Of a stretch of DNA of 64,000 bases, positions 1,690 to 62,427 are shown piece by piece. The stretch is from contig OZ024741.1 in NCBI GenBank assembly GCA_964016885.1, positions 73,656,001 through 73,720,000 of the forward strand, in the 5' to 3' direction. A model generated the notes under the pieces. That model had not been told where the DNA came from, made no database searches, and saw only the letters and a program-made list of their open reading frames with translations. The DNA comes from Eledone cirrhosa (taxonomy: Eukaryota). Every line of letters starts with the position of its first letter. Position 1 is the stretch's first letter. The position numbers and the translations under genes were made by a program.

Positions 1690-1693
<4 letters not shown>

Positions 1694-1739
1694 CGTTTCG
1701 TTTCGCTTTTTCTACCCGCCGAAATGCGATTCTCGCTGA

Positions 1740-1745
<6 letters not shown>
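1690..1745 (+). mobile_element. Short end fragment of the ~600-bp terminally redundant family
   Basis: Reverse complement of 55086-55141 (ATAAATTCAGCGAGAATCG...GAAACGCAA), embedded between (TA)n tracts. Confidence 0.75.
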
Positions 1746-10844: not shown

Positions 10845-10845
<1 letters not shown>

Positions 10846-15681: not shown

Positions 15682-16208
15682 AGGTGAGCACGCGATGTTT
15701 AGGTTCACGTCAGTATCGAGGTGTAGAGCTAGATAGAGTGCAATATAATGTGTCTACTTTAGGCACAAGGCCAGGAATTATCTCAGTGCATTACTGGTAC
15801 TTTATTTCATCGACCCCGTAAGGATGAAAGGCAAAGTTAACCTCAGCAGGGTTTGAACTCAGACCATAAAGGGCCGTAACTCTTTGCTGCAAAGCATGGC
15901 GTCTGACTCTCTACCGATACTGCCAACCCACCAAAGATAATAATTGTTTCTACTTTAGGCACAAGGCCAGCAAATCAACCAGAGTATTACTGGTACTTTA
16001 TTCTATCGACCTCGTAAGGATGAAAGGCAAAGTTAACCTCGGCGGGATTTGAACTCTGAACATAAAGGGCCGTAACACTATGCTGCAAAGCATGGTGTCC
16101 GACCCTCTACCGACACTGCCAATCCACCAAGGACGAATGGTTACCTCTATTGTAGCAATGTCACTACCACTGCAGAGGTCTGACGAGCTTTTGATTCCAG
16201 AGTCGGGC
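15680..16208. mobile_element. Family D copy interrupted by two tandem SINEs (15752-15935 and 15945-16128, minus)
   Basis: 15680-15750 and 16130-16208 are colinear with the reverse complement of 12565-12720. Canonical CTGACGA at 16180. Confidence 0.75.
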
Positions 16209-16654: not shown

Positions 16655-16972
16655 CATATGTACATAAGTGTTATATCGAACATTAATAATAATGTTCGAA
16701 AAACGGCCCGATTTGAAGCTGTGCAGTGAAGCTCATGTGCAGTTCAACACTGGCTTTGAGGAACAATCAACATGTTTCTGGGTCATTACCCGTCATCAGG
16801 AGTATATACCCTGCCAGTCTGTTGAACGGTTGAAAATATATAGTATATTCGTAAGTACACATTGGCTGAGTAGCCTCATTTGCGTACTGAGTGAGTTACG
16901 GCTTCAAATCCGGCCGTTTGTTTACAAACGAACCGAACATTATTATTAATGTTCGATATAACCCATACGTAC

Positions 16973-17610: not shown

Positions 17611-17616
<6 letters not shown>

Positions 17617-18291
17617 TAGCGAGAATCGTATTTCAGCTCAGGAATTAACGAAAATCAACCTCCGAGATGTGTGGCAAGCGCTCGATGATTCATATGAATC
17701 AGAGCTACAACATACGTTAAGGGCCAAACACACTGAGATGGTGCTTAAACAAATCATCCGCACAGCCAAAACAAACGACCAAGTAATTCGGGTCAAACAA
17801 TAAAAATATATGTGACGAAAATTTACCCGGATCCCTGGACGGTTGGTAAAATCCAGTATTCGGGTTTCTGCGACTCCATAAATCAGGTACTGTCCGCCTA
17901 CATAAAGAATGTTGGGCTTCTGGTAAGATGATTGAACAAGGAAGCCGTGTTATCAACGGGTTTTTGCACCAAATGCTATACATAAGTGTGACTATTACTG
18001 AACCCATGTGGAGTTCAGCAAGGGAGGCAACACCTATATTAGGCGAATGAATTCAGTTGTGTATAATATTGCGAGAATGCAAAATATCACAAATCGAATA
18101 AAGCTCTCGACAGAATGGTTAAATATAACAAAGCTATTCATCAGTCAATAGAAGCAACTAAAAAAATCAATAAAATTAACTGCTCAATAGCTAGACTCGG
18201 GAGATTAATACAAATATAAATTAGCGAGAATCGTATTTCAGCTCAGGAATTAACGAAAATCAACCTCCGAGATGTGTGGCAAGCGCTCGAT
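17611..18291. mobile_element. Terminally redundant non-coding element, 605-bp unit
   Basis: Identical 76-bp direct repeats at 17611-17686 and 18216-18291; (TA)n on both sides; diverged relative at 55086-55701. Confidence 0.8.
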
Positions 18292-18368: not shown

Positions 18369-18459
18369 AATAAAAATGGCGTAGACATTACAATACAATA
18401 GGAGGGAACGTAATAGTACCACTGATGATGTTGCAGATGTGCAACGAAAGAACTTTGAT

Positions 18460-18523: not shown

Positions 18524-18725
18524 GGAAAAAGTATGACCCTGACGGCAGAGCTCAAGCCGTTTCGACAGCTATTTCTGGACTATTTCAGTCCAGAAATAGC
18601 TGTCGAAACGGCTTGAGCTCTGCCGTCGGGGTCATACTTTTTCCTATTTCGCACTCTACTACCCTAAGTATTGAGTACTTTGGTGCGTTATGGTCCATCT
18701 GGTTCCTTACCACAATTCCTTTGTT
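18523..18725 (+). mobile_element. Family A fold-back insert
   Basis: About 60-bp near-perfect arms; GAAAC-GGC...GCC-GTC at 18605-18627; tail. Confidence 0.85.
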
Positions 18726-18743
18726 ATATATATATATATATAT

Positions 18744-19577: not shown

Positions 19578-21090
19578 TTGGGACAGGACCCTTTGCCAGA
19601 GAGGAGCTTCAGAGATCCAAGAAGAAGATCAAGGAGGGCAAAGCCCATGAAGAAGATAGAGTGGCATCAGAGGTGATGAAGGGGTGTGATTTTGACAATA
19701 TCAACCAGGAGTTCTGTAACCAGCCACTGGAAACGGAGTTGCACCGAATCAGTTGAGGATCAGTAATATCGTCCCAGTGCCAACGAAGAGAGATCTCTCT
19801 AACACCAACAACTATATGGGATCTCACTGACGTCACTTGTGGCAAAGACCCTCAACAGGATGAATCTTAACAGGATCCAACCCGAGATGGAGAAGAAGCT
19901 CAGGGACAACCAGAACGGATTTAGAGAGGGAAGATCAACCACCACTTAAATCCTGATGCTGAGGAGGATATTAAAGGGAGCTAGAGCAAAGAGGCTTCCT
20001 GCTAACATGGTTTCCATTGACTTTAGGAAGATCTTTGATTCCGTGAACCGTTACTGCCTGATGAAGATCTTACAGGCTTATGGAATCCCCAAAAAGATAG
20101 TGGACCTGATATCACTGCTCTACACCAACACCAAAGCCCAAGTCATTATACCTGACGGGATGACGGAGTTATTTGAGGTACTTGCTGGAGTGTTCCAGGG
20201 AGATACATTGGCTCCTTACCTTTTTATCATCAAAGTGGACTATTGTATGCGACTTGCACCGGAGAAACACCAGGACTCTGGCTTTACTGTAGCACTGACT
20301 CAGAGCCGGGGAGTTAAGGCTAAAAAGATATCGGATGCTGAATTTGCTGACGACATAGTTCTGGTGACAAACAGTGAAGGAGGCAGAGGAGTTTATTAGA
20401 GAGGTGGAGACTGTGGCGATGAGTGTGTGGCTGAGAATGAATGAGAGTAAGACGAAGTATCTGGTAAAGAACATTAAGAAGCAACAGATCATGAATGTAG
20501 GCGGGAAGCCGCTACAGTTGGTTGAAGACTTCCTGTATCTGGGAGCAAAGATTGGGAGCACAGAGGATGATATGGTTGAGTGGAAGAGCAAAGCCTGGGT
20601 GGCGTGTCACAATTTGAGATCGGTGTGGAAGTCGGACTTTCGTAAAGACCTGAAGATCCGTCTCTTTGTTGCTACGGTGTAGTCTGTACTACTGTACGGG
20701 TCTGAGACTTGGATACTGACCAAGAAACTCACTCAGATGGTTGATGGGTGCGACACGAGAATGCTGAGGATGACTCTGAACATTAATCAGTATACACAGA
20801 GGATGAAGAACATGAGCTGTACGGGAGCCTCCCAAGAGTCAGCTCGAAAGTAACACAGAGGAGAATGAGGTTAGCTGGACATGCTCACTGCCATTCAGAG
20901 TTGATACTGCAATCAGTGCTTCTGTGGGAGCCCCTACACGGACACACTAGAAGAGGGAGAACGAGGTTGACCTATATTGATGCCCTAAGGACAAACACTG
21001 GTCTCTGGGAGACGCAGGACATGGCCGCGATGATGAAGGACAGATCGCTGGAGAGAACTCGTCCATGGATCTGGGGAATTTGACCCGCCT
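19578..21090 (+). mobile_element. RTE/RTE-X-like LINE, 5'-truncated pseudogene
   Basis: IDFRKIFDSV, GVFQGDTLAPYLF, FADD, FLYLG and RLAGHAH motifs with stops and frameshifts. Same family as 37875-39150. Confidence 0.9.
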
Positions 21091-24854: not shown

Positions 24855-24916
<62 letters not shown>

Positions 24917-24919
<3 letters not shown>

Positions 24920-26903
24920 AATATCTTTATGTCGTTTGGAAGCCTCGACAATGCAAATGGGTAAATCTCCAGGTAACGAGGTCCGGTGGTGGAGAGAGAG
25001 ATGTAAGTGGGTGTACGCTGAGATGCGTGGTGTGTATAAGATGTGTGAGATGTGTAGAATGAAGGGAAGAGTATAAAGGATAAAAATAAAAATAACTACA
25101 CAAGAGAGAGTTACCTTGGGAGAGATTTAATAGTCCCTATATATTTCGGATTCACATCCATCAACTGGGGTTTTTTCCGGGGTGGAGGAAAAGGTTGTCT
25201 GTCGGACAAGTCCGGATCGCGTCTTTCGCTGTTTGTTGATTTGAATATCTGAGGTATTCGGCGGAGCGCGCGTGTGCGTGAAATGGGGTCGGTCGTACAG
25301 AGGTCAGCGGCCGAATGAGGGAGTGGGATGGCGCTAGCTGTCAGTCCATTCTCTGCCTATTTGTTAAATGTGTGCGTGTGTGCGTGTGTTGTTGTCTCGC
25401 TTGAGTGTGTGTGTGTGTGTGTGTGTTACCTTGTTCATCTGTATTGGCAGTGTAGTATGTTCGTATGGTGGAATGCTACTGTGTGTGTGTGCGTGTGTGT
25501 GTGTAGTTGTCTCGTTTGCGTGTGTGTGTGCGTGTGTTGTGTGTTGTTGCATCGCTTGTTAACTTAAACCAGCCATTTCATTTCGCTTCTCTCTGATCGG
25601 TTGTTTATTTGCGGTTGCAGTCGTTTGATAAAAAGCGCTTCCTTGATACGTAACGTGCCGACGTTTCTTTCAGTCGCTAGAATTGTGACAATGGGCCTTC
25701 CGTCTTTGTTTCCGCATTTGTCTATGTGTTTCCGGAAAGACGAGGCCCTGGTTTTAGTGTGTTCCTTGATCCGGATGTGCACAGGTCGAATTGTGCTACC
25801 TATGTAGTATTGGTTGCACCTGTCACATTCTATCTTATACACGACGTATGTGCGTAGGCAACAGTTAGCATGGCGTATCGGGCAGTCTCTGAGGGAGCAT
25901 GCGTCAGTAGATTTTTCGGGTTTCCTGGAGAGGCATCTTCGCAGGGAGGGGCCCAAGTGGGCCAGGTGGATGTCAAGGCCCTCCCTCCGTATCGCCTTGC
26001 GGATAGCGTTGGTGGTTTTCTCGCCCAGGTGTGGCATTTTAAGGAAGCACTTGCCTTGGGTGCTTCTCTGTCTCTTGCGTCTGGTGTCTCCTATTCTGTC
26101 TGTGATCGAGGTAGGGTACCCGTTCGTCTCCAGCACCTCGAGGAATCGCTTGGTATGAGTGACACCACTCGCGGGATCGCTGCATCTGTTTTTGATTCGC
26201 GCGATCTCGTTCGTGATGTATCCTCTTTTGGCACTGTTAGGGAGGGCGGACCTGTAGTGAACGAATAGGTCCCTGCAGGCTGCCTTTCTGTAGAAGTTAC
26301 AGTGGATCCCTCTTTGTTCCGTGATGTTAATTCGGAAGTCGAGGAGGGCAAGTGACCCGTCTTCGTTGGGGTGTTCAACACTGAAGTCAATGTTCTCGTC
26401 CGTGTTGTTGAACGTCTCATAGATTCTGTTCGCCGTGTCTTGGGAAGATGTGAGGATGAGGATATCGTCCACGTATCTTGAGAAAAAGGCTACGGCGTTG
26501 GGGTGGCAGGCGTTGAGTGCCTTGCGTTCGAGGTTGTCCATGTAGGAGATCGCTAGCACACCTGATAGACTTGATCCTGATAGACTTGTCCGACAGACAA
26601 CCTTTTCCCCCACCCCGGAAAAAACCCCAGTTGAAATATATAGGGACTATTAAATCTCTCCCAAGGTAACTCTCTCTTGTGTTGTTATTTTTATTTTTAT
26701 CCTTTATACTCTTCCCTTCATTCTACACATCTCACACATCTTATACACACCACGCATCTCAGCGTACACCCACTTACATCTCTCTCTCCACCACCGGACC
26801 TTGTTACCCGGAGATTTACCCATTTGCATTGTCGAGGCTTCCAAACGACATAAAGATATTTACTTATTGTTCCACAATGCTTCAAGCAAACTTCAATACT
26901 CTC
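24917..26903 (-). mobile_element. Young 5'-truncated Penelope-like element with inverted pseudo-LTR and tail
   Basis: 24917-25212 is inverted at 26583-26863, followed by a 40-nt tail; (TA)n on both sides; contains the RT/GIY-YIG ORF. Confidence 0.9.
25564..26582 (-). CDS. PLE reverse transcriptase C-terminal half plus Cys-rich linker plus GIY-YIG endonuclease (possibly Nematis-like)
   Basis: GSSLSGVLA..YMD, RYVDD, LLDF, YRK, SALP..K, CSLRDCP, VVYKIECDRC..YIGSTIR...RIKEH, EALFIKRLQPQIN; no internal stop. Confidence 0.92.
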
Positions 26904-32469: not shown

Positions 32470-35400
32470 GTTCTTCTGGTTTTATAATTTCACAAAGTTT
32501 TACCAATAGAGAGAGAGAGTCGGTTTCTAACATAGACACAAGACTGTCTGATTGGAATTTACACAACATCAACTAGGTAGATATGTATGTATGTCTGCAT
32601 GCATGCATGTGTAGATATGGATGGTATTGTATGTGTGGATGTGTATGTTTTGAGTTGTATGTGTGCATGTGTATATGCTTTTTATCTGTACATGTGTATA
32701 TGCAGTTATTAGATGCAACATTTTTGGAATGTTTTACATATTTTTACTGTTCCATTAATGGATTGTACTTGTAATTTCCTAACTAGTTGTGTACTTTCTG
32801 TTCCTGTGAAGCCTAGCTTCTCAAGATTTGTATTGAGGCAGTTACTAACATACCCAGTGCCCCAATAATCACAGGCATAAATCTGAAGGTGTAATCAGGG
32901 TGGAGTATCTGCAGATTTCTCATCAGTTCTGTATAAATATTCTCCTTTTCACTAATCTTTGATATTATATTGGAATCTGCTGGGCAGCTAATTTCCACTA
33001 CTGTGCATGTTTTCTTCTCCCTGTCCCATATTATAATATCTGGTCTGTTATGCCTGCATTTTATTGGGGTTTTTACTGGAACATTCCACCAGTACTGTTT
33101 CATATTATGTACATGGATGTCTTCCACATTGTTGTAGCTTTTAATGTGTTTATTATCGGGGCTATCTTTTTTACGGACTGCATTATACAGTGTTTTGGCC
33201 ATTACATCATGCCTCATAGGTAGATAGTACCGCGATTAGATCTTTCGACAGCTGCTGATGACATGGATGACATCCTGATGTTAGTTCTGCATAGTCTGCA
33301 CTTGTTATCACATCTAGGTGTTTTGCCTGCATCCCTATCTCTTTTGTGAATCAGGTATTTCGTGTTCAACTCCTGTTCTTGGATTGCAAAAACGTATCCT
33401 TCAAAGTGGGAGCCAATATAGCGGTTGTTGGTCCAAGATAGACTACTTTCCTTATCTATATTACTCTCACTCTGGAGATTCCTGGCAACATATCCATACA
33501 TTATTTTTTGCTGATAAGCATGCAGTTTTCATACATGGATTCACTGTGATACTGCTGAGCGACATCCCTGGGTGTGAGTTTTTGATTATCACACAGGGAA
33601 TATCTCTCAAGGAGTTCCTTCCCAACTCTCATGATCTTATCTGTTTCATGCAGATAGACTTGCTCGAGAAACGGGTTCCTACGCTTCGAGGTTCGTAGAT
33701 GTTGTCGGAGAGATATGATGCGACATTCAAATGTTGTCTGGACTGATGTTAGGCCTCTGCCTCCCTGCCTACGTTTCAAGTAAAGGCGGTCTATGTCACT
33801 GTTGATGTGGAAGTTTCCGGTGTTGTTTAGTATTTTTCGAGTTCTAACATCAACTGTTCGGATTTCGTCTATCGTCCAATTGAGTATTCCAAACGATTGT
33901 GTTAGAACAGGCACAGCAAACACATTGTGAGCCACTGTTTTGTTTTGCGCAGAGAGTTCCGATGACCAGATCTTTCTTAATCGGGTGTAATATTCCCTGG
34001 TTACGCGTTCTTTATTACAGATACAATTATAGGATATGTTCTCCTCTATCCCCAGCCAGGTATCTGTAGCTGTCCTCATCAGATATCGGTGAATCAGTTA
34101 GGCCATTGATGACAATGTTGCAAGATTGGGTTGTTGTTTTTCCACGCTTTACAGTTATGTATGAGCATTTATCTTGGCTAAACTCCATTCCTATATCCTT
34201 TGAGAACGTTGTAACCATGTCAAGATTTTTCTTCATTCCATCCATGTTCTTGGCATAGAGTTTCAGATCGTCCACAAAGAAATTATGGGTTAGGTTCGTA
34301 TTTCTGTCCTCCTGTGAGCCAATGATGTATCCATCACATTTCTTGAGCAGAAAGGACAAGGGGTTTAATGACAAGATGAATAATATCACAGAGAGACTGT
34401 CCCCCTGAAATATACCCCTGCAATATTTTATTTTATCAGTGAAAATAGAGTCCTCCCTCTCTGTCTTTAACCTTAGGGTAGTAGCCCAAGAAGAAGACAG
34501 CCTCTCTATGGCTCTGACAATAATGTCTGGGACTTTAGCAAGTTGGAGGGCCTCTATCATCCAAGAGTGGGGAACAGAATCGAAAGCTTTCCTGTAGTCC
34601 AGCCAGACTGTATCCATATTCCTCCTAAGTTGTCGCACCTCCGACATCGCAGTTTTGTTGATTAGGAGTTGTTCAGCACATCCCCAAACCCCTTTCTTTC
34701 CAGCTGCTTGTATCTGTGATGATGTTATTATTTTCACAGTGATCTTGGAGGAATAGGTTCAGGCAGGCTGTATACATCTTATACATCAGGTTCTGGCATG
34801 CAATGGGTCGGTAGTCTTTTTGCCGAGTTGGTGTCTTTCTCCTTGGGGACCAGTAATGTTTGTGCTAATGTCAACCATTCTGGTATAAGTGTATCTCCCT
34901 TAAGAGCTTGTTGGTAGAGGTCAGTAAGATACCTCCGATAGAATATCAGTTTTTTTGTACCAGTAGCCGACAACCCTATCTCTTCCTGGTGTTTTCTTAT
35001 CTTGGAGTTTTCCTATCACATCTCAAGTGTACCCTCACTTATTTCGTATGTTTTTGTTGTAGGGTAGGAGCAATAGTTCTTTCGGATTTTTCTTAGCCAC
35101 ACTGCATCTTGGTTGAAATTCTTCTTTTCACCCCAACTTGGGGCCTCTGTGACACTTATTATTTTGCCCTTCATAGACTGATCTTTGGTTTCGTCTGAAT
35201 CTTTTATTAATCACTTTTCTCTCATCTACCTTCTTCAGGTATCGGCGTTTTTCGCTAACAGCTCTCAATTCTTGTTTGAGGGTGATCAGCTTATATTGGA
35301 GAGTTCTGGTTCTACTGTTACCAAACATCGTCTCTATTTTATTTTTCACACTTTGTTGTTGAGGAGTGAGTTTTTTTGGTGTTTGTTTGCATGTAAGGAG

Positions 35401-36540
35401 CATTGTCACATATCCTATGTTTTTTCGTAGGTCAGAAATCTTTTTTTCTATTTTAGTTATATATGATGGTATTGTTGGTGGTGTTCTGTTCTTGCTAATA
35501 TCTCTGCTATCACCAAGATAATGCTTCACTGTCGTTGCTAAGGCATATAAACAGGCGTTGATTTGCCAAAATGTTGGGGTTTTTATCCGTCGTAAATATT
35601 TATCCCCTATTTCGTCAATAACACGTAATATTCCATTATTTGTTTTTTTTATTAAACATTGTCGTTTTAACACGTTCAGCAAGGGAGATATTTATACATG
35701 AATTAATTTCTCTCTGGAAGATTTCGTTGAGGGAAAATTTCAATTGTTTATACTTTTGATTATTATCATTATCGATAGTATTTTCCACAACAGTCGAGGT
35801 AGACCCGGATGATACACCTGGTGTCAAATTTCTTCGATTATTATTATCGATAATGTTGTCCCCAGCATTCGAGGTAGACTTAGATGGTACAGGTGGTGTC
35901 AAGTTTCTTACAGGCATAGTTGTTTCAAGGCTCTGTTCGACCTGGCTGCTAGGAAGTCTAGTAGCATGGCGACCTGTAGCAAGTGTTGTTGATCCCATGT
36001 TTGTTGTGGGGGACTTACAATTAATAATATTTATCTTATTTTTTACGTTCAACAAACGTCGCTTGTTAGCGTAATTGTTTCGCTGTGAAATAATTTAGCC
36101 CTGGGTGCATTTCGTCCCAGAGTAGCTTCATTCTGTTCATATAGCCAATGGAGGGATTGTTTTTTGCCATTTTAAAACAATTAAATAAATCATTATTAAG
36201 TTCGCAACTCCAAGAGAAATGCGATTTATAATTTCGGTTCCTTCTGTAGCTACAACTGAATAAAGTTTGTTTACCTTCCTTGTTATTTGTCTTCGGTACT
36301 TCCTTAATTTTGTTGTTGCTGTTGTGTTCAGCCATGCTGTTTGTAGCAAATCCTTGTAAAATGAATTATGTATTTAGTCGGATATCTCTACGAATTCGAA
36401 TAAAAGGTGTCTTCAGAAGATATAGTTAGAAGAATAACCAGTTATTCAACATGACTGTAGTTGTGGCATAACTGTCGGAGATAGTATTCATCTTAAATTT
36501 AATAAATAGTCTCCCACGCCAACATATGCGACTGATCGCG
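32470..36540 (-). mobile_element. R4/Dong-clade non-LTR retrotransposon (RT plus restriction-like endonuclease), near full length, frameshifted
   Basis: [74 protein letters not shown]...VVEISCP in consecutive minus-strand ORFs from 36335 to about 32710. Confidence 0.88.
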
Positions 36541-37291: not shown

Positions 37292-37367
37292 CTTGCTGAC
37301 TGAGGATCCTATGGGCTGTTATACCGCACATTTCTGTGGTGAAACGAACTAAATTCGTATCAGCAAG
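37292..37367 (+). ncRNA. Full type I hammerhead ribozyme
   Basis: CTTGCTGA-CTGAGGA-TCC...GGT-GAAA-CGAA.CTAAA.TTC-GTA-TCAGCAAG: 8-bp perfect helix I, 5-bp intramolecular helix III, GUA triplet. Confidence 0.85.
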
Positions 37368-37875: not shown

Positions 37876-39150
37876 GGGGATCTCACTGACGTCACTTGTG
37901 GCAAAGACCCTCAATACAATGATTCTTAACAGGATCCAGCCTGATATGGAGAAGAAGCTCAGGGACAACCAGAACGGATTTAGAGAGGGAAGATCAACCA
38001 CCAGTCACATCCTGATGTTGAGGAGGATATTAGAGGGAGATAGAGCAAAGTGCCTTCCTGCGGTCATGGTTTTCATTGACTTTAGGAAGGCCTTTGATTC
38101 TGTTGACCGTCACTGCCTGATGAAGATCTTACAGGCTTATGTAAGAAGATAGTGGACCTGATATCACTGCTCTACACCAACACCAAAGCCCAAGTCATTA
38201 CACCTGATGGGATGACAGAGTTCTTTGAGATACTGGCTGGAGTGCTCCAGGGAGATACATTGGCTCCCTACCTTTTTATCATCGTAGTAGACTATTGTAT
38301 GCGCTTTGCACTGGAGAAACACCAGGACTCTGGCTTTACTGTAGCACCGGCTCAGAGCAGGAGAGTTAAGGCGGAAAAGATATCGGATGCTGAATTTGCC
38401 GACGACATAGTTTTGGTGACAAATACAGTGAAGGAGGCAGAGGATTTGATGCAGGAGGTTGAGACTGTGTCGATGAGTGTGGGGCTGAGAATGAATGAGA
38501 CTAAAACAAAATATCTGGTAGAGAATGTTGAGAGGCTAGAGGGGATCACTAATGTAGGCGGGAAGCCGCTAGAATTGGTTGAGGACTTCCTGTATTTGGG
38601 AGCAAAGATTGGGAATACGGAAGATGATGTGGTTGAGAGGAAGAGCAAAGCCTGGGCGGCGTGCCACAGCTTGAGATCGGTGTGGAAGTCGGACCTTCGT
38701 AAAGACCTGAAAATCCGCCTCTTCATTGCTGTAGCGGAGTCTGTGCTGCTGTACGGGTATGAGAGTTGGACACTGACCAAGAAACTCACTCAGATGGTGG
38801 ATGGGTGCTACACGAGAATGCTGAGGATGGCTCTGAACAATAATCAGTATACACTGAGGATGAAAAACTCAGAGCTGTATTGGAGCCTCCCAAAAGTCAG
38901 CTCAAAAGTGACACAGAGGAGACTGAGGTTAGCTGGACATGCTCACCGACATCCAGAGTTGACATTGCACTCGGTGCTCCTGTGGGAGCCCCTACATGGA
39001 CACACTTGAAGGTTAACGTATGTTGATGCCCTAAGGACAGACACTGGTCCGTTAGAGACGCAGGACATGGCAACGATAATGAGGGACAGAGACCGCTGGA
39101 GAGAACTCGTCCATGGATCTAGGGAATTTTACCCGCCCTAGATAGATAGA
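37875..39150 (+). mobile_element. RTE/RTE-X-like LINE, 5'-truncated, largely open RT
   Basis: GISLTS, NQNGFR, FIDFRKAFDSV, GVLQGDTLAPYLF, FADD, LLYGYESWTL, RLRLAGH; (TAGA)n tail. Confidence 0.92.
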
Positions 39151-48099: not shown

Positions 48100-48560
48100 A
48101 ATTGTTTCTACTGTTGGCACAAGGCCAGCAATTATCCTAGTGTGCTTTATTTTATCGAAATAATAATAATAATAATAACGGTTTTTGATTTAGGTACAAG
48201 GGCATCAATTTGGGGGGGGGGAGTCGATTAAATCGACCCCAGTGCGTGACTGGTACTTTATTTTAGCCAAGCTCGGCCGGATTTGAACTCAGAACATAAA
48301 GGGCCATGACTATGCTGCAAAGCATGGTGTCTGATGCTCCACTGATACTACCAATCCACCGCCGTAATGGTAATAATGATTTCTACTATAGGCACAAAGC
48401 CAGAATTTTGGGGAAGAGGAAAGTCGATTAAATCGACCCCAGTGCATTACTGGTACTTTATTTTATCGACCTCGTAAGGATGAATGGCAAAAATTACCTC
48501 GGCGGGATTTTAATTCAGAACGTAAACGGGCGTAACTCTAATCCACAATAATATCAGTAA
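48100..48560 (-). mobile_element. Head-to-tail cluster of three SINEs in (AAT)n
   Basis: Copies at about 48100-48157, 48180-48365 and 48378-48560, separated by AAT runs. Confidence 0.8.
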
Positions 48561-55079: not shown

Positions 55080-55085
55080 ATAAAT

Positions 55086-55701
55086 ATAAATTCAGCGAGA
55101 ATCGTATTTCGGCTGGTAGAAAAAGCGAAACGAAACGCAAAATCGTAGAAATGCTGGCAAGCGCTCCAATAGTTAAGAAAACTAGAGCTAAACAATATGT
55201 TAAAACGCCATACAAACTGAAAAAGTGGTCAAGAAGGCATTAACCACGGAAGCCAAAAAAACAAATCAAGCTAAACAAGTCAAACAAAATAAATGATAAA
55301 AACAGACCTGGACCCAAATGGAATTGATGGTAAAATCCAAATGCAGGGTTTCTATGACACTTAAATCAATAATACTGTCTGCTTAAAACTATAAGCTTTC
55401 AGAATAAAGTTCGAACAAGGAATATCACGTTATCAACAGGTATTTTGCTCTGTAACCAACTTTGTGAGTGACGGAGAACTTTGTAAAAGCACATGTGTAA
55501 CTCACAAGGGGAAATTCCCCAGATTTTGGCAAATGAATTCAGTATGTGTAAATCATACAAAGAATTGCATGGATAGCACAAATCGAATAAGCACTCAACC
55601 TGGTAGTTTTTAAAATAAACTTATGCAATTAATCTGTCAATAGAATTATTAACAGGTTAATTGTAAGACTCGGGAGATTAATACAAACATAAATTCAGCG
55701 A
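55086..55701. mobile_element. Terminally redundant non-coding element, 603-bp unit
   Basis: ATAAATTCAGCGA at 55086 and 55689; colinear conserved blocks with 17611-18291. Confidence 0.75.
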
Positions 55702-56458
55702 AGAAATACTGATGATAGTCAGAAGATCACTAAAAATAGAGCAAGAAACCAGGATTATCCGTCATCAGTGATCTTCTGACTATCATCAGTATTTCTTCGC
55801 ATTAAAGACCAGATACCTCAAGTCAGTGCGAGCAATAACTAAAATAAGTTATTGGGATAAAAAGAATTGGGTGGAGAAAGAGAGACATGTAAACAAACAA
55901 AAATGATATAGCAACGTAATATATGCATGTATATATATATATATATATGTAATAATAATAAAATTGAAGACTAAAATCCAAAGAGGGCTCGATAAGGAAA
56001 ATATATATCAAATATATAAGAACCGTAGAGCAAATATTTATTAAAATAACAGATTAAAGTTTAAGCAAAGAATCGCTGCTTTCACCCTTAACGGGATCTT
56101 CTGAAACTAACAAAGTCAATCTGTAAACGCAGAACTGGATATTTCAAAAAACGTTGCAACCGGAGGAAGACAGGAAGACGATACTTTGGTTCGTGGTAAC
56201 GTTCGCTGGCAAAGAACGGGAAAAAACGAATAATACGTCTATAATAGGAGCGGTGAAAAACAATTACGCGCAAAGACAGAACCACGTTTATGGTATAAAA
56301 GAGGTCGTAGACTAATGTTCTCTTAGGTGGTGCATAGAGACGTTCTCTGTCAATGAACGAAAAAGCGAAGATAATAAGTCATATGTGGAGCGTGAAGAAC
56401 AATAGCACGCAAAGACAAAACCACGTAAATGGTATAGCAGAAATCGTAGACTAAAATT

Positions 56459-58580: not shown

Positions 58581-59584
58581 ATATATTAATTCATTATATG
58601 GAAAAGAGAGCAAATATAGAAAACTAGCTGGCCTCGTGTCGTCAATTGGACGGCTAAATGTACTATTTTATATATAAAAGGTGTACAAAATCAGGTTTTT
58701 ATTTTAATAACTCTTTTATTACAAGCGTTTTGGTGAAAAATCTATCCTGAACTAACATATCTTGATTGCTTGTTTCCTTCAAAGTTAATTTTCAGTTTTC
58801 CTTCTTTCTCGAATGACTTAAAGCCACATAAAGCTGGCCGTGACTAAATACGGGGGCTGGCAAGTAAATACCAACTATTTCGAAGCTCTGTCCTTGCGAT
58901 TTGTTTGTGGTCATGGCAAATGCTGGTATCACAGGCTCATCTGCTCGTATTGAAGTTGCATTCGGACGCTGGTCGACTCTTGGTATGAAAGCTTCATTTG
59001 CTTTTTTACTGCCAGTAATGATTTTTGCATGAATATAAAATTCATTATAAGATAAAACCGAAACTCAAGTACCATTCAGCAGGCCATTAGCAGGATCCAA
59101 ATTTCTCAGCAAAATCACAATGGAATTTTTCTTCAGTACTAGATTATATGGGGGTATGCCTGACAGCATCAGGAAATTCAAAAGCTCTTCCGGATAATTC
59201 ACGATGTTCTCGTCACTTTCGTCAATCAACACATCAACACTTTTGATATACCGGTAAGTTTCCATCACGAAGTGACATTATCTTGGTATTCAGTTCGATT
59301 GAATCTTTGTTCTTTGATGTTAAAATAATTTTGGTCGAAATTTCATCAATATCGCCGATACTTACAACAGATATGGCGTCGCCAAATATGTCTCTTATCA
59401 AATTTCCAGATTAAATCATGGTTTCAGGTATCTCAGTTAAGGTAAAATTTGTCATGTGTGTCCACAGAAGATTTTAAAGAAGATTCAATTATAGCACCAT
59501 TTGATCCACTCGGAATAAACCGACGCAGTTTTCCTAAAGTCCCCTTCAAGAAGCATAACTTTACCGCCGAAAGGCTTATGGCAG

Positions 59585-60130
59585 TTCGTCGGTAGAGGGT
59601 CAGACACTATGCTTTCCAGCATAGTTACGTCCCTTCACGATCTGAGTTCAAATCCCGCCGAGGTTGACTTTGCCTTTCATCCTTACGGGGTCGATAAAAT
59701 AAAGTACCAGTAATGCACTGGGTAATTGCTGGCCTTGTGCCTAAAGTAGAAACAATTATTTCCTTTAGCAGTAGGGCGGTGAATTGGCAGTATCGGTAGA
59801 GGGTTGGACACCATGCTTTCTAGCATAGTTACGTCCCTTTACGGTCTGAGTTCAAATCCCGCCGAGGTTGACTTTGCCTTTCATCCTTACGGGGTCGATA
59901 AAATAAAGTACCAGTAATGTACTGGGTAATTGCTGGCCTTGTGCCAAAAGTAGAAACAATTATTTCCTTTAGCAGTTATGATCTGATTTCAAATCCCGCC
60001 AAGGTTAACTTTGCCTTTCATCCTTACGGGGTCGATAAAATAAAGTACCAGTCACGTACTGGGGTCGATTTAATCGACTTTTCCCTCCCCCAAATTACTG
60101 GCCTTGTGTCTATACTAGAAATCCTTATTT
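59585..60130 (+). mobile_element. Three head-to-tail tRNA-derived SINEs inside the Helitron
   Basis: Middle copy is full length with A box TGGCAGTATCGG and B box GAGTTCAAATCC. Each copy is followed by TTATTTCCTTTAGCAG. Confidence 0.9.
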
Positions 60131-62427
60131 CCTTTAGCAGAAGATTAATGCATCTCAATGCATTTCCTGAAAGCATTGACACCTCATCAATTATTATTAG
60201 GTCAGCTAATTTTAATTTTTCAGAGTACTCTGATGGAGTCTAAGTTAGTGACGTAGAATTTTCCAAGATAGGCACTGGGAATTTAAAGCCACTGTGTACA
60301 GTTCTTCCTTGGTGCAATAGATCAGCCGCAATGCTTGTTGTAGCAAATGAGAGAACACGCTTTCGTTGACTACACAAATGCGATATCTAGGTATTGTAGA
60401 GATACGTTTTTCTTGTGTCTCTGAGGCCATCAAAAAAACAAAATCTGCCGGGTCAGTGTTCTTCATCAATGGCTGTGATGATTTGATCAAACGCACGATG
60501 CTGACTGTCTGTCAAAGGGGAAATTTGTGCTTCCAATCTAAGGTCGGCCTGGTTTTGTTCTACATTCTCAGCGTTCATGAAAGGCATCAGCAATCGGAAG
60601 ATGCAAATCTCGGCATGTCAAATCTTGCAAGGACAATGTTATTCCAATTTCTTGTAAAGCTAGTTGAACAGAGATTTCTCTGGTGTGAATTCTAAGGAAG
60701 TCTTCAGTCAAACTTTCTTTAAAGTTGTTGAACAGGAGGTCAGGATTGACCAGATTATTGAAAGTGTAAATGAGTGCAAACAGCTGTCGGAGCTGCTTTG
60801 GCATATTTGGCATCTTCTAAGTATCTTCTCCACACATTGTCATTTTGAACCAACTGCCATTGCTCTGCTGCTTCTTTATAGCTACCGTATATAACCTCAT
60901 CCACTGTTTTCAGTTCCTCGAAACCCCGAGCTCATTTAAAGTGCAGCAGCAAAGTCTCATGAAAATCTTTCCTGATCCTTTGGCTGACAGAATACATTCG
61001 ACTCATGATTTTGCGCAGTTTTCTTATTGTAGAAATAATGATAAGGAATATCTACATATAGATATTGTCTTGTATTTTCATTATTTTGGTTGAGCAAGAA
61101 CCATGCAGTTAGAATAGTGTTGCGTTACGCAGCTTTTCTAGTGATCTTTCTTGTCGTTCCCCAAAATAGGCGGGCTGTTCCTGGAGGAGATGAACAGGGA
61201 GGTGAATAGTTGCATGGGATCTGTCATGTATTTTGAATTCAAGTAATCTCCACATTCCTTCCGGAGCACTCACATATCTGGCATCTAGATAATTGTTGAC
61301 TTCATCATGAATTATGACCTTGTCGTCAGCTGCTTCGCGGATGCCTTCATTTATGGAATCGTAGCCTTTGTATACGCACATAAACACATATTTTACAGAG
61401 CGGTTGAAGGCACAAATTTCTACGTTGATATAACAGTTGTATTTCTGACTTAAATACTTGTTAGAAGGCACAGTATATCGGTTATCCACTACTTTCTGAC
61501 CAACATTTGATGTTGAACCCGAAAGTCATTTGGATGATGGATAACTATCTCTGTTTTTAAAGGTTTCCTGTTGAACAGTTTTTATTTTCCATGAAATGCA
61601 CGTTAGGGTTTTGCTCACCACAAGAACCATGGATCATAAATTTCTTAACAATTTGGTAGAGTACTCGTTCTGTCTCTGGGTCAGAAATTTCAGCACACAC
61701 AGTTTGGTAAATTCTTTCACTTGTATTCGATTTATCATCTGGATGAAATGTTAATAATAAATGGTCGTGCGGTAGTTTTCCCTTCTGAAATTCTATGGTG
61801 TTACAATGTGCGACAACTTGGCCAATCACATGTCTTTTTGTTACATCAATTATTAATCCTGCAACTTAATATTATACAACCGAGCCACTAAATCTGGTTT
61901 ACCAGAGGCTGATTGACCTGGGAAAAAATAGTTTTGTATCTTGGGCCAATTAAGGTTGCATGTCATTGTAAAAAATATATCGGGTAGATCCAATTTTTTC
62001 ACAATTGCTAATGCATCTGAGTATCGCTCTCTCGTATATTTTGGTGATCCTTGGAATGATGATGGAAGAATGACTGTCTCTTCGATTCGAGTATTTTCAG
62101 TATTTGCTCCATTGGCTAAATGGTCAGCAAGTCATCATATTGTTACACTTTCAGCTTGTTTTGTTGCGTTTGTAAATAATTTAAATTGTTAACCTCACTT
62201 TCTAAGTGAGAATCTACAACCTACTGTTGAAAAGGTTTTCCTTCGGGCAAATAAATAAACACACATTGGCTTTTATTATAGTTGATTAATAATCCATTGT
62301 TTTAAATCTTTATGGATGGGCGAAAACGAATGCTAGACATGTTCAGTGCAATAGTAAATCCAATTCATCGGTCTCAAAAATCATGTCTAATCCGCAGGCT
62401 GCACTCAGAAACAGGTGAAGAAAAGAA

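Follow-up and report, generated by a model that had tools for sequence, protein, structure and literature searches.

A 605-nt element, found in two subfamilies within TA repeats of Eledone cirrhosa, carries an extended hammerhead motif with a U3-A8 pair. We put the probability at about 0.7 that it is a non-autonomous, Penelope-dependent retrozyme, whose minus-strand multimeric transcript is predicted to self-cleave and whose reverse transcription would begin internally, at a TA target that has been nicked. The window, i.e., the whole 64,000-nt stretch of contig OZ024741.1 that was analyzed, is AT-rich and dense in (TA)n and (CA)n repeats, SINEs, and LINE fragments. It contains three copies of the element:

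17611..18291, minus strand: copy A, a 605-nt unit plus 76 nt (1.13 units)
17611..17686, minus strand: downstream copy of the 76-nt terminal repeat of copy A, the 3' end of the element
18216..18291, minus strand: upstream copy of the 76-nt repeat, a pseudo-LTR from the partial tandem
55082..55701, minus strand: copy B, a 603-nt unit plus 13 nt (1.02 units)
1690..1745, plus strand (the RNA sense here): copy C, a 56-nt 3'-end fragment of the B subfamily

The 76 terminal bases of copy A, counted from 17611, recur identically with a period of 605 nt (78 bases including two flanking TA bases), and copy B carries an exact 13-nt repeat with a period of 603 nt. Both the end repeats of A and the status of B as a diverged relative with a 603-nt unit had been proposed in a sequence-only reading, which placed B at 55086-55701, and both were confirmed. 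Copies A and B are identical at 397 of 571 aligned columns (69.5%), with a global alignment score of 462 compared to 157 ± 14 (maximum 203) in 200 shuffles. This identity is clumped into seven identical runs of at least 12 nt where 2.15 are expected (p = 0.0014), and all six short blocks previously named as invariant are exact words common to A and B. Copy C is 95% identical to B across 62 nt. A search of the window with nhmmer and a covariance model returned neither a fourth copy nor a partner, and no full dimer was seen there, only the 1.13- and 1.02-unit copies with one hammerhead motif each. The GC content is low in both full copies (38.6% and 34.5%).

The copies measure approximately 56 (C), 616 (B), and 681 nt (A), and all three have one end in common. 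In A, this fixed 3' end lies at ~17613 within (TA)n, and the variable 5' end at 18291 is also in (TA)n. In B, the fixed end lies at ~55082-55089, and the variable end overlaps by 4 nt with an unrelated fragment bearing an inverted repeat, to which it is fused, while C sits between two (TA)n runs. TA runs, which make up ~5.9 kb of the 64-kb window, are found at or adjoining 3/3 fixed ends. The claim of a single fixed end at (TA)n in all copies stands for A, B, and C, except that B adjoins pure TA only via a short TG run. Furthermore, the fixed end of B carries four more junction bases; a second start site would fit these, as could slippage. A common end at TA runs combined with a variable opposite end is what target-primed reverse transcription with 5' truncation characteristically leaves, and on this basis we infer that the RNA sense of A and B is the minus strand. 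This strand also folds better, with z-scores of -1.83 and -4.48 against -0.69 and -2.01 for the plus strand (20 shuffles each). As a whole, the three copies display a Penelope-like anatomy of partial-tandem pseudo-LTR, fixed 3' end, and 5' truncation; a 30-40 bp tail is absent from A, B, and C.

The terminal direct repeat of A, as well as two short segments close to the unit ends that form an imperfect inverted pair, could be taken to indicate a DNA element, such as a small LTR/TRIM, a Helitron2/Helentron-type, or a recombinase element. We consider this origin scarcely credible, since the repeat length varies (76, 13, or none), C is a one-ended fragment, the variable end contradicts it, and neither TG...CA nor TC...CTRR ends occur. 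Fixed-length TG...CA repeats were absent, and an LTR/TRIM assignment was rejected. Helitrons and Helentrons are marked by TC...CTRR or TT ends, a 3' hairpin, and two precise ends; reading the sequence for these features yielded no such combination, and this assignment was rejected as well.

Two observations concern the variable ends. That of copy A lies at most 3 nt from the edge of an invariant 12-nt block (18277-18288, within 18277-18291) that holds a self-complementary hexamer. This proximity could mark the 5' end of the transcript or a stop of reverse transcription, with a rough chance expectation of ~8%. The fragment fused to the variable end of B (55698-55919) has a 34-bp inverted repeat and two CUGAUGA words; a template switch, or insertion beside another piece of a Penelope-like element (PLE), are possible origins of this fusion.

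The statement that A and B share no open frame was borne out. Mismatches between A and B show no codon-position bias (p = 0.37, 0.78, and 0.47), and 0/12 of their read-through frames matched Pfam better than E 0.2, while the control, the open reading frame of a PLE in the same window, matched RVT_1 and GIY-YIG. Searches of large protein databases, which covered three reading stretches of the 12 frames, returned no homologue for the longest ORF of A, none among longer proteins for a 62-aa plus-strand ORF, and no match in 1.84 billion proteins for one read-through frame of B. Six of the 12 net indels between conserved blocks are multiples of three, a signal judged too weak to matter. A coding origin of the 605-nt unit was rejected on the absence of codon-phase bias, of Pfam matches, and of protein homologues. 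The family is therefore non-coding, as retrozymes are, and lacks the RT and GIY-YIG reading frame of an autonomous PLE.

The sequence-only reading had reported no recognisable hammerhead. However, the minus strands of A and B both hold, at homologous places, a hammerhead core of type I that features the rare U3-A8 pair:

17825..17961, minus strand: extended type I hammerhead motif of copy A
55306..55441, minus strand: extended type I hammerhead motif of copy B

Read on the minus strand, the invariant block GTTATCAAC gives G-UUGAUAA-C, the first half of the U3-A8 core, and the invariant block GGGTTTCT gives A-GAAAC, its GAAAC half. Of the earlier inference, the circularly permuted, non-coding, RNA-based element was retained, in line with the missing coding signal, the partial tandems, the conserved junction, and a predicted cleavage site that is crossed intact. 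Its "different or unknown processing motif", on the other hand, was abandoned, as these two blocks are the halves of a hammerhead core.

Both copies hold UUGAUAA, GAAAC, and a cleavage triplet (GUC in B, AUC in A), and all 11 fixed core nucleotides are identical between them. In B, stems I, II, and III comprise 5, 8, and 4 bp, UUGAUAA lies at 55436-55430 and GAAA at 55352-55349, and the predicted cut follows GUC, between 55311 and 55310. In A, stem I (5 bp) pairs 17961-17957 with 17829-17825, UUGAUAA lies at 17956-17950 and GAAA at 17868-17865, with an extra C at 17949 and an extra A at 17869. Stem II of A has 7 bp after an A.C pair at its base, stem III forms 3/4 pairs with a C.A mismatch at 15.2-16.2, and the predicted cut follows AUC, between 17830 and 17829. 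All three helices are thus present in both copies, and the predicted cut sites lie 216-222 nt upstream of the fixed end. The G10.1-C11.1 pair is usual in hammerheads but not universal; the base of stem II here has C.A followed by G.U (B) or A.C (A). Stem II encloses an insert of 77-81 nt and stem III one of 35-38 nt, and no tertiary contact between loops I and II was identified by eye in A or B. Invariant blocks lie within stem III (17844-17855) and stem II (17934-17943) of the hammerhead of A, and are candidates for tertiary contacts or protein binding.

Hammerheads with the U3-A8 pair occur naturally and are active in vitro (PMC3088659, excerpts). The variant is found in PLEs of Cercyon, and hammerheads of PLEs typically have an extra nucleotide following A9 (Cervera and de la Pena, PMC4209133, excerpts). 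Within the window, an ordinary hammerhead motif at 16799 (minus strand) has the same extra C and extra A as the motif of A.

Canonical CUGANGA descriptors found nothing common to A and B. The descriptor was then widened stepwise until it matched, first in B, by allowing 3-8 covariants, insertions, and long spacers. Shuffling both rows jointly was meant to offset this selection. A homologous motif in both rows occurred in 0/20,728 single-column shuffles and 0/26,783 shuffles of 12-column blocks (together 0/47,511), in 1/19,349 and 1/29,122 at intermediate settings, and in 9/20,082 and 29/26,603 (together 38/46,685) at the loosest setting. A single motif of the quality of B arose in 1/3000 shuffled units, or 39/3000 under looser settings. 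A blind type I scan of both strands of the window returned seven rows representing six motifs, two of which are the sites in A and B. Between the two copies, 14/16 stem pairs are kept, four of them through two-sided and two through one-sided changes, with 13/32 stem bases differing (P = 0.021 for pair retention given the changed positions). In the alignment of the two hammerheads, 92.9% of cells pair, compared to 21-41% with slid partners; a letter-shuffle control (236/500) is uninformative with two rows, and covariation power is small because only two full copies exist. An invariant core together with four two-sided stem changes over 30% divergence points to continued selection on the ribozyme fold.

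Predicted energetics differ between the copies. The hammerhead fold of B lies 1.0 kcal/mol above the minimum free energy (MFE) of the fragment and 5.2 above that of the circle, while that of A lies 8.1 and 12.2 kcal/mol above the respective values. Predicted probabilities of stems I/II/III are 0.20/0.12/0.24 in B and 0.0/0.43/0.0 in A. With its stem III mismatch and a predicted fold far above the MFE, copy A may be impaired.

Rfam includes models of the twister, pistol, hatchet, and hairpin ribozymes. It returned 0 matches for A and seven for the B region, with no ribozyme, and specifically none of these four, among them. Rfam also missed an ordinary minimal hammerhead at 18422, so that its silence is weak evidence; across the whole window, the best 150 of 496 Rfam matches were swamped by microsatellites. 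An HDV-like motif, raised as a candidate by the sequence-only reading, gave no strict hit on four strands and two relaxed hits, in A only and none in B, using a nested double-pseudoknot descriptor run without a positive control.

Copy A alone also shows a second, type II-like arrangement, in which 18138-18144 (minus strand) combines with the junction core at 18194-18239 into CUGAUGA, GAAA from the junction, a GUA site, and stems of 5/5/3 bp with a 2-nt insertion (0/400 shuffles at matched thresholds). Copy B breaks this core yet keeps hairpin H1, which would sequester it in A. We take the arrangement to be chance or relic.

The unit junction and its surroundings were analyzed separately from the hammerhead:

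18194..18239, minus strand: near-invariant junction core, with the UAUA at which A and C join the TA target
18132..18192, minus strand: hairpin H1, just 3' of the junction core (z -3.1 in A, -5.8 in B)
18051..18099, minus strand: hairpin H3, which two invariant blocks close (A: z -2.3; B: z -3.7)

Nowhere is the unit more conserved than in the junction core, where 44/46 positions are identical between A and B (p ~1e-5 at the unit-wide rate). The two halves of the core match four and two times in the window where 0.32 and 0.02 are expected. The earlier description of a near-invariant core of ~45 nt was accurate in its identity but not in its continuity, as the core of B is not contiguous and its internal junction stops after 13 nt. 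A pseudoknot is possible on the minus strand, with a 7-bp helix crossed by a 4-bp helix and the UAUA of the fixed end left unpaired. Crossing helices of this kind appear in 0.2% of 3000 shuffles, at thresholds fitted after the fact, and the 7-bp helix alone in 17%.

Such a pseudoknot, or another new motif, could in principle carry out the processing and render the hammerhead match incidental. Extreme conservation, the capacity to form the crossing helices, and the lack of both an Rfam and a strict HDV-like match speak for this possibility, which we nonetheless regard as very unlikely. The pseudoknot pairs are invariant between A and B and show no covariation, the 99-nt junction region folds no better than shuffles (z +0.21), and the joint hammerhead match is expected by chance at a rate of ~1e-3 or less. 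Furthermore, conservation on both sides of the fixed end has a ready explanation in an internal start of reverse transcription that needs downstream RNA. By analogy with known PLEs, the junction is better read as a start and recognition region for reverse transcription than as a ribozyme.

Hairpin H1 shows two two-sided changes between A and B; the z-scores of H1 and H3 refer to windows picked after inspection. Across the unit, the pair-probability overlap of A and B is 0.28 on the minus strand, compared to 0.068 ± 0.033 in 25 column shuffles, and 0.171 compared to 0.074 on the plus strand. When the null is made stricter by changing the same positions, an overlap of 0.28 is reached in 5/69 and 2/69 trials, and none of 20 structure tiles of the unit is better than p = 0.042, so that unit-wide conservation of structure is suggestive only. 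A 3' multi-branch domain was unsupported by folding (z -0.38 and -0.95), and a SECIS reading of H1 as well as Pol III box matches were dismissed by eye.

The window also holds a genuine PLE:

24916-26903, minus strand: 5'-truncated Penelope-like element with RT and GIY-YIG, (TA)n at both ends

Its reading frame matches RVT_1 (E 3.7e-6) and GIY-YIG (E 2.1e-4), in each case falling slightly short of the curated cut-off, and its linker is, by eye, a degenerate Neptune/Nematis type. A degenerate hammerhead lies near 25147, ~220 nt from the fixed end as in A and B. An inverted pseudo-LTR (pLTR) copy at 26583-26863 has a tail of ~40 nt and lacks 15 nt of the degenerate hammerhead core. Since this PLE ends in (TA)n with its pLTR, the end fixed by such elements in this genome is the sense 3' end.

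The 605-nt family shares with PLEs (Poseidon PAc, PMC11167929, excerpts; Neptune, Naiad, Hydra, and Chlamys/MRC1, PMC8557442) a fixed 3' end, 5' truncation, and a pseudo-LTR from partial tandems, as well as targeting of (TA)n, RNA that is conserved to either side of where reverse transcription starts, and a hammerhead upstream of this start. In contrast to PLEs, it has no ORF, and it shows no sequence match to the PLE of the window. 5' truncation, partial tandems, and a (TA)n bias are described for PLEs (PMC8557442), octopus Naiad and Hydra families target (TA)n (excerpts of its supplement), and cephalopod Naiads have been called long inactive (PMC8557442). An autonomous partner whose 3' end matches was found neither in the window nor by exact words in the consensus sequences excerpted from that supplement. 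There, exact 8-14-mers gave no core match to the Naiad, Chlamys, and Hydra consensus sequences among the matches listed, and an exact-word search with GAAATACG covered the best 3 of 6 places in line-wrapped text.

Compared at the level of the ribozyme, the motif shares type I topology, U3-A8 covariation, and the extra nucleotide after A9 with PLE hammerheads, and its closed helix III with the monomer-active fungal forms among fungal and protist PLE hammerheads with a large helix III (PMC4209133, excerpts). The U3-A8 motifs of Cercyon are minimal and of the dimer type (same excerpts), whereas large inserts occupy helices II and III here. These inserts hold invariant blocks of their own, and the G10.1-C11.1 pair is absent, unlike in PLE hammerheads.

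A SINE-like passenger of a microsatellite-targeting non-LTR LINE such as Dong/R4, with partial tandems arising as end-to-end template jumps, would likewise leave a fixed 3' end and 5' truncation, which fit target-primed reverse transcription generally, and Dong-R4 elements were recently active in Octopus vulgaris (PMC13282606, excerpts). We give this reading almost no weight, since two subfamilies that differ by 30% keep the same junction on either side where template jumps should vary the joints, a tRNA head is missing (no tRNA was found in the units), and a type I hammerhead is a PLE trait.

In the Penelope-dependent mechanism that we propose, source loci of at least ~1.58 units, the length that includes the two whole ribozymes required for monomer release, would be transcribed on the minus strand. 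Hammerheads would cut the multimeric transcript ~216-222 nt upstream of the fixed end, and the 605-nt monomer would be ligated into a circle, as in other retrozymes; circles of retrozyme RNA have been shown for coral, mussel, and axolotl (PMC7229834, excerpts). Following the biochemistry of Poseidon, a Penelope-type GIY-YIG endonuclease would then nick AT-rich DNA, and the DNA 3' end would pair with UAUA inside the junction core, from which reverse transcription would start internally. The Poseidon protein of Anolis makes nicks in AT-rich DNA; its reverse transcription begins within the RNA and requires RNA downstream (3') of this start (PMC11167929, excerpts). Running past the start would yield one unit plus 76 nt (A) or plus 13 nt (B), and early stops would yield fragments such as C. 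Because A and B cross the predicted cleavage site intact, their template was either circular or an uncleaved multimer, and cannot have been a linear monomer released by cleavage. Since each has fewer than two whole ribozymes, none of the three copies could free a monomer on its own, and all would be dead ends.

The second of these templates underlies an alternative that we judge unlikely, namely a non-autonomous PLE copied from uncleaved linear multimers without any circle, in which the hammerhead is a relic, or else protein-assisted or dispensable. This would accommodate the imperfect motif of A, which is not the predicted ground state. In addition, unprocessed RNA is the main substrate of Poseidon in vitro, where hammerhead cleavage is dispensable for insertion (PMC11167929, excerpts), and Naiad and most Chlamys elements, including the non-autonomous MRC1, make partial tandems without a canonical hammerhead (PMC8557442). 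It is opposed by the invariant core and by the two-sided changes in four stem pairs, seen at 30% divergence.

The preferred assignment, a self-cleaving retrozyme mobilized by a PLE, was compared with the metazoan non-LTR retrozymes (PMC7229834 and bioRxiv 10.64898/2026.07.22.740005, excerpts of both). The family is, like these, non-coding, low in GC, and arranged head-to-tail, with one type I hammerhead per unit, no visible PBS, PPT, or LTR hallmarks, and co-occurring PLEs. It differs in its U3-A8 core and long stem II and III inserts, and in showing only partial tandems. Its unit of 603-605 nt also exceeds the 150-450 nt of animal retrozymes (PMC7229834, excerpts). With the size out of range and a two-ribozyme array not seen, membership is likely but not proven. 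A PLE origin has been argued for the animal non-LTR retrozymes themselves (Li et al., bioRxiv 10.64898/2026.07.22.740005, excerpts).

In the literature searched, we found no description of this family, nor of an animal retrozyme whose U3-A8 hammerhead carries both long inserts; the family may stand in the repeat library of PMC13282606. Blastn searches of phages and plasmids with the family returned no match. One genome-contig match of 23 nt, which falls between bacterial genes and shows no homology past 35 nt, was taken as chance.

The hidden hammerhead removes the case for an unknown processing motif and reveals a blind spot of current searches. Published searches for PLEs and retrozymes relied on CUGANGA cores with a spacer of 7-17 nt, with half-cores noted at 35-50 nt (PMC8557442, methods), and such scans miss the present motif because of its UUGAUAA core and 80-nt spacer. 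The claim that some PLE clades lack hammerheads thereby becomes cheap to re-test. If the motif cleaves, it would be a natural hammerhead with large inserted domains and would extend animal retrozymes to ~600 nt. Furthermore, the invariant core around the priming site is a compact candidate for the RNA signal recognised by Penelope-type reverse transcriptases. A bolder proposal, which we hold to be doubtful, is that of a 600-nt viroid-like circular RNA lineage, long-lived in an animal, in which hammerhead, invariant loops, and pseudoknot fold into one replicon that offers a telomerase-like RT a template loop with UAUA. This lineage would be the first member of a larger, hidden class, in which some PLE families called hammerhead-less carry stretched covariant ribozymes missed by CUGANGA short-spacer descriptors.

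Further hammerheads and repeats occur across the window. Well-formed hammerheads at 37300-37359 (plus strand) and 36948-36889 (minus strand), with stems of 8/7/5 bp, a CUGAGGA core, and a GUA site, sit in the two arms of a 299-nt inverted repeat and represent another PLE-type family with a closed stem III. Ordinary minimal hammerhead cores are found in small fragments at 18422, 4698, and 46391 (plus strand) and at 16799 and 18876 (minus strand). The family at 18524-18727, with copies at 10845, 15482, 37778, 53326, and 57153, combines one end fixed at (TA)n with an inverted arm that folds back and a tail of 80 nt that stays unpaired, i.e., a PLE-type inverted truncation. A SINE-like family of ~200 nt is abundant (59579-60143, 15745-16133, and 48103-48540, among others) and includes several head-to-tail pairs. 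Two LINE RT fragments (19818-21089 and 37877-39137) are 87% identical and RTE-like by eye, and a decayed longer non-LTR element lies at 32813-36094 on the minus strand.
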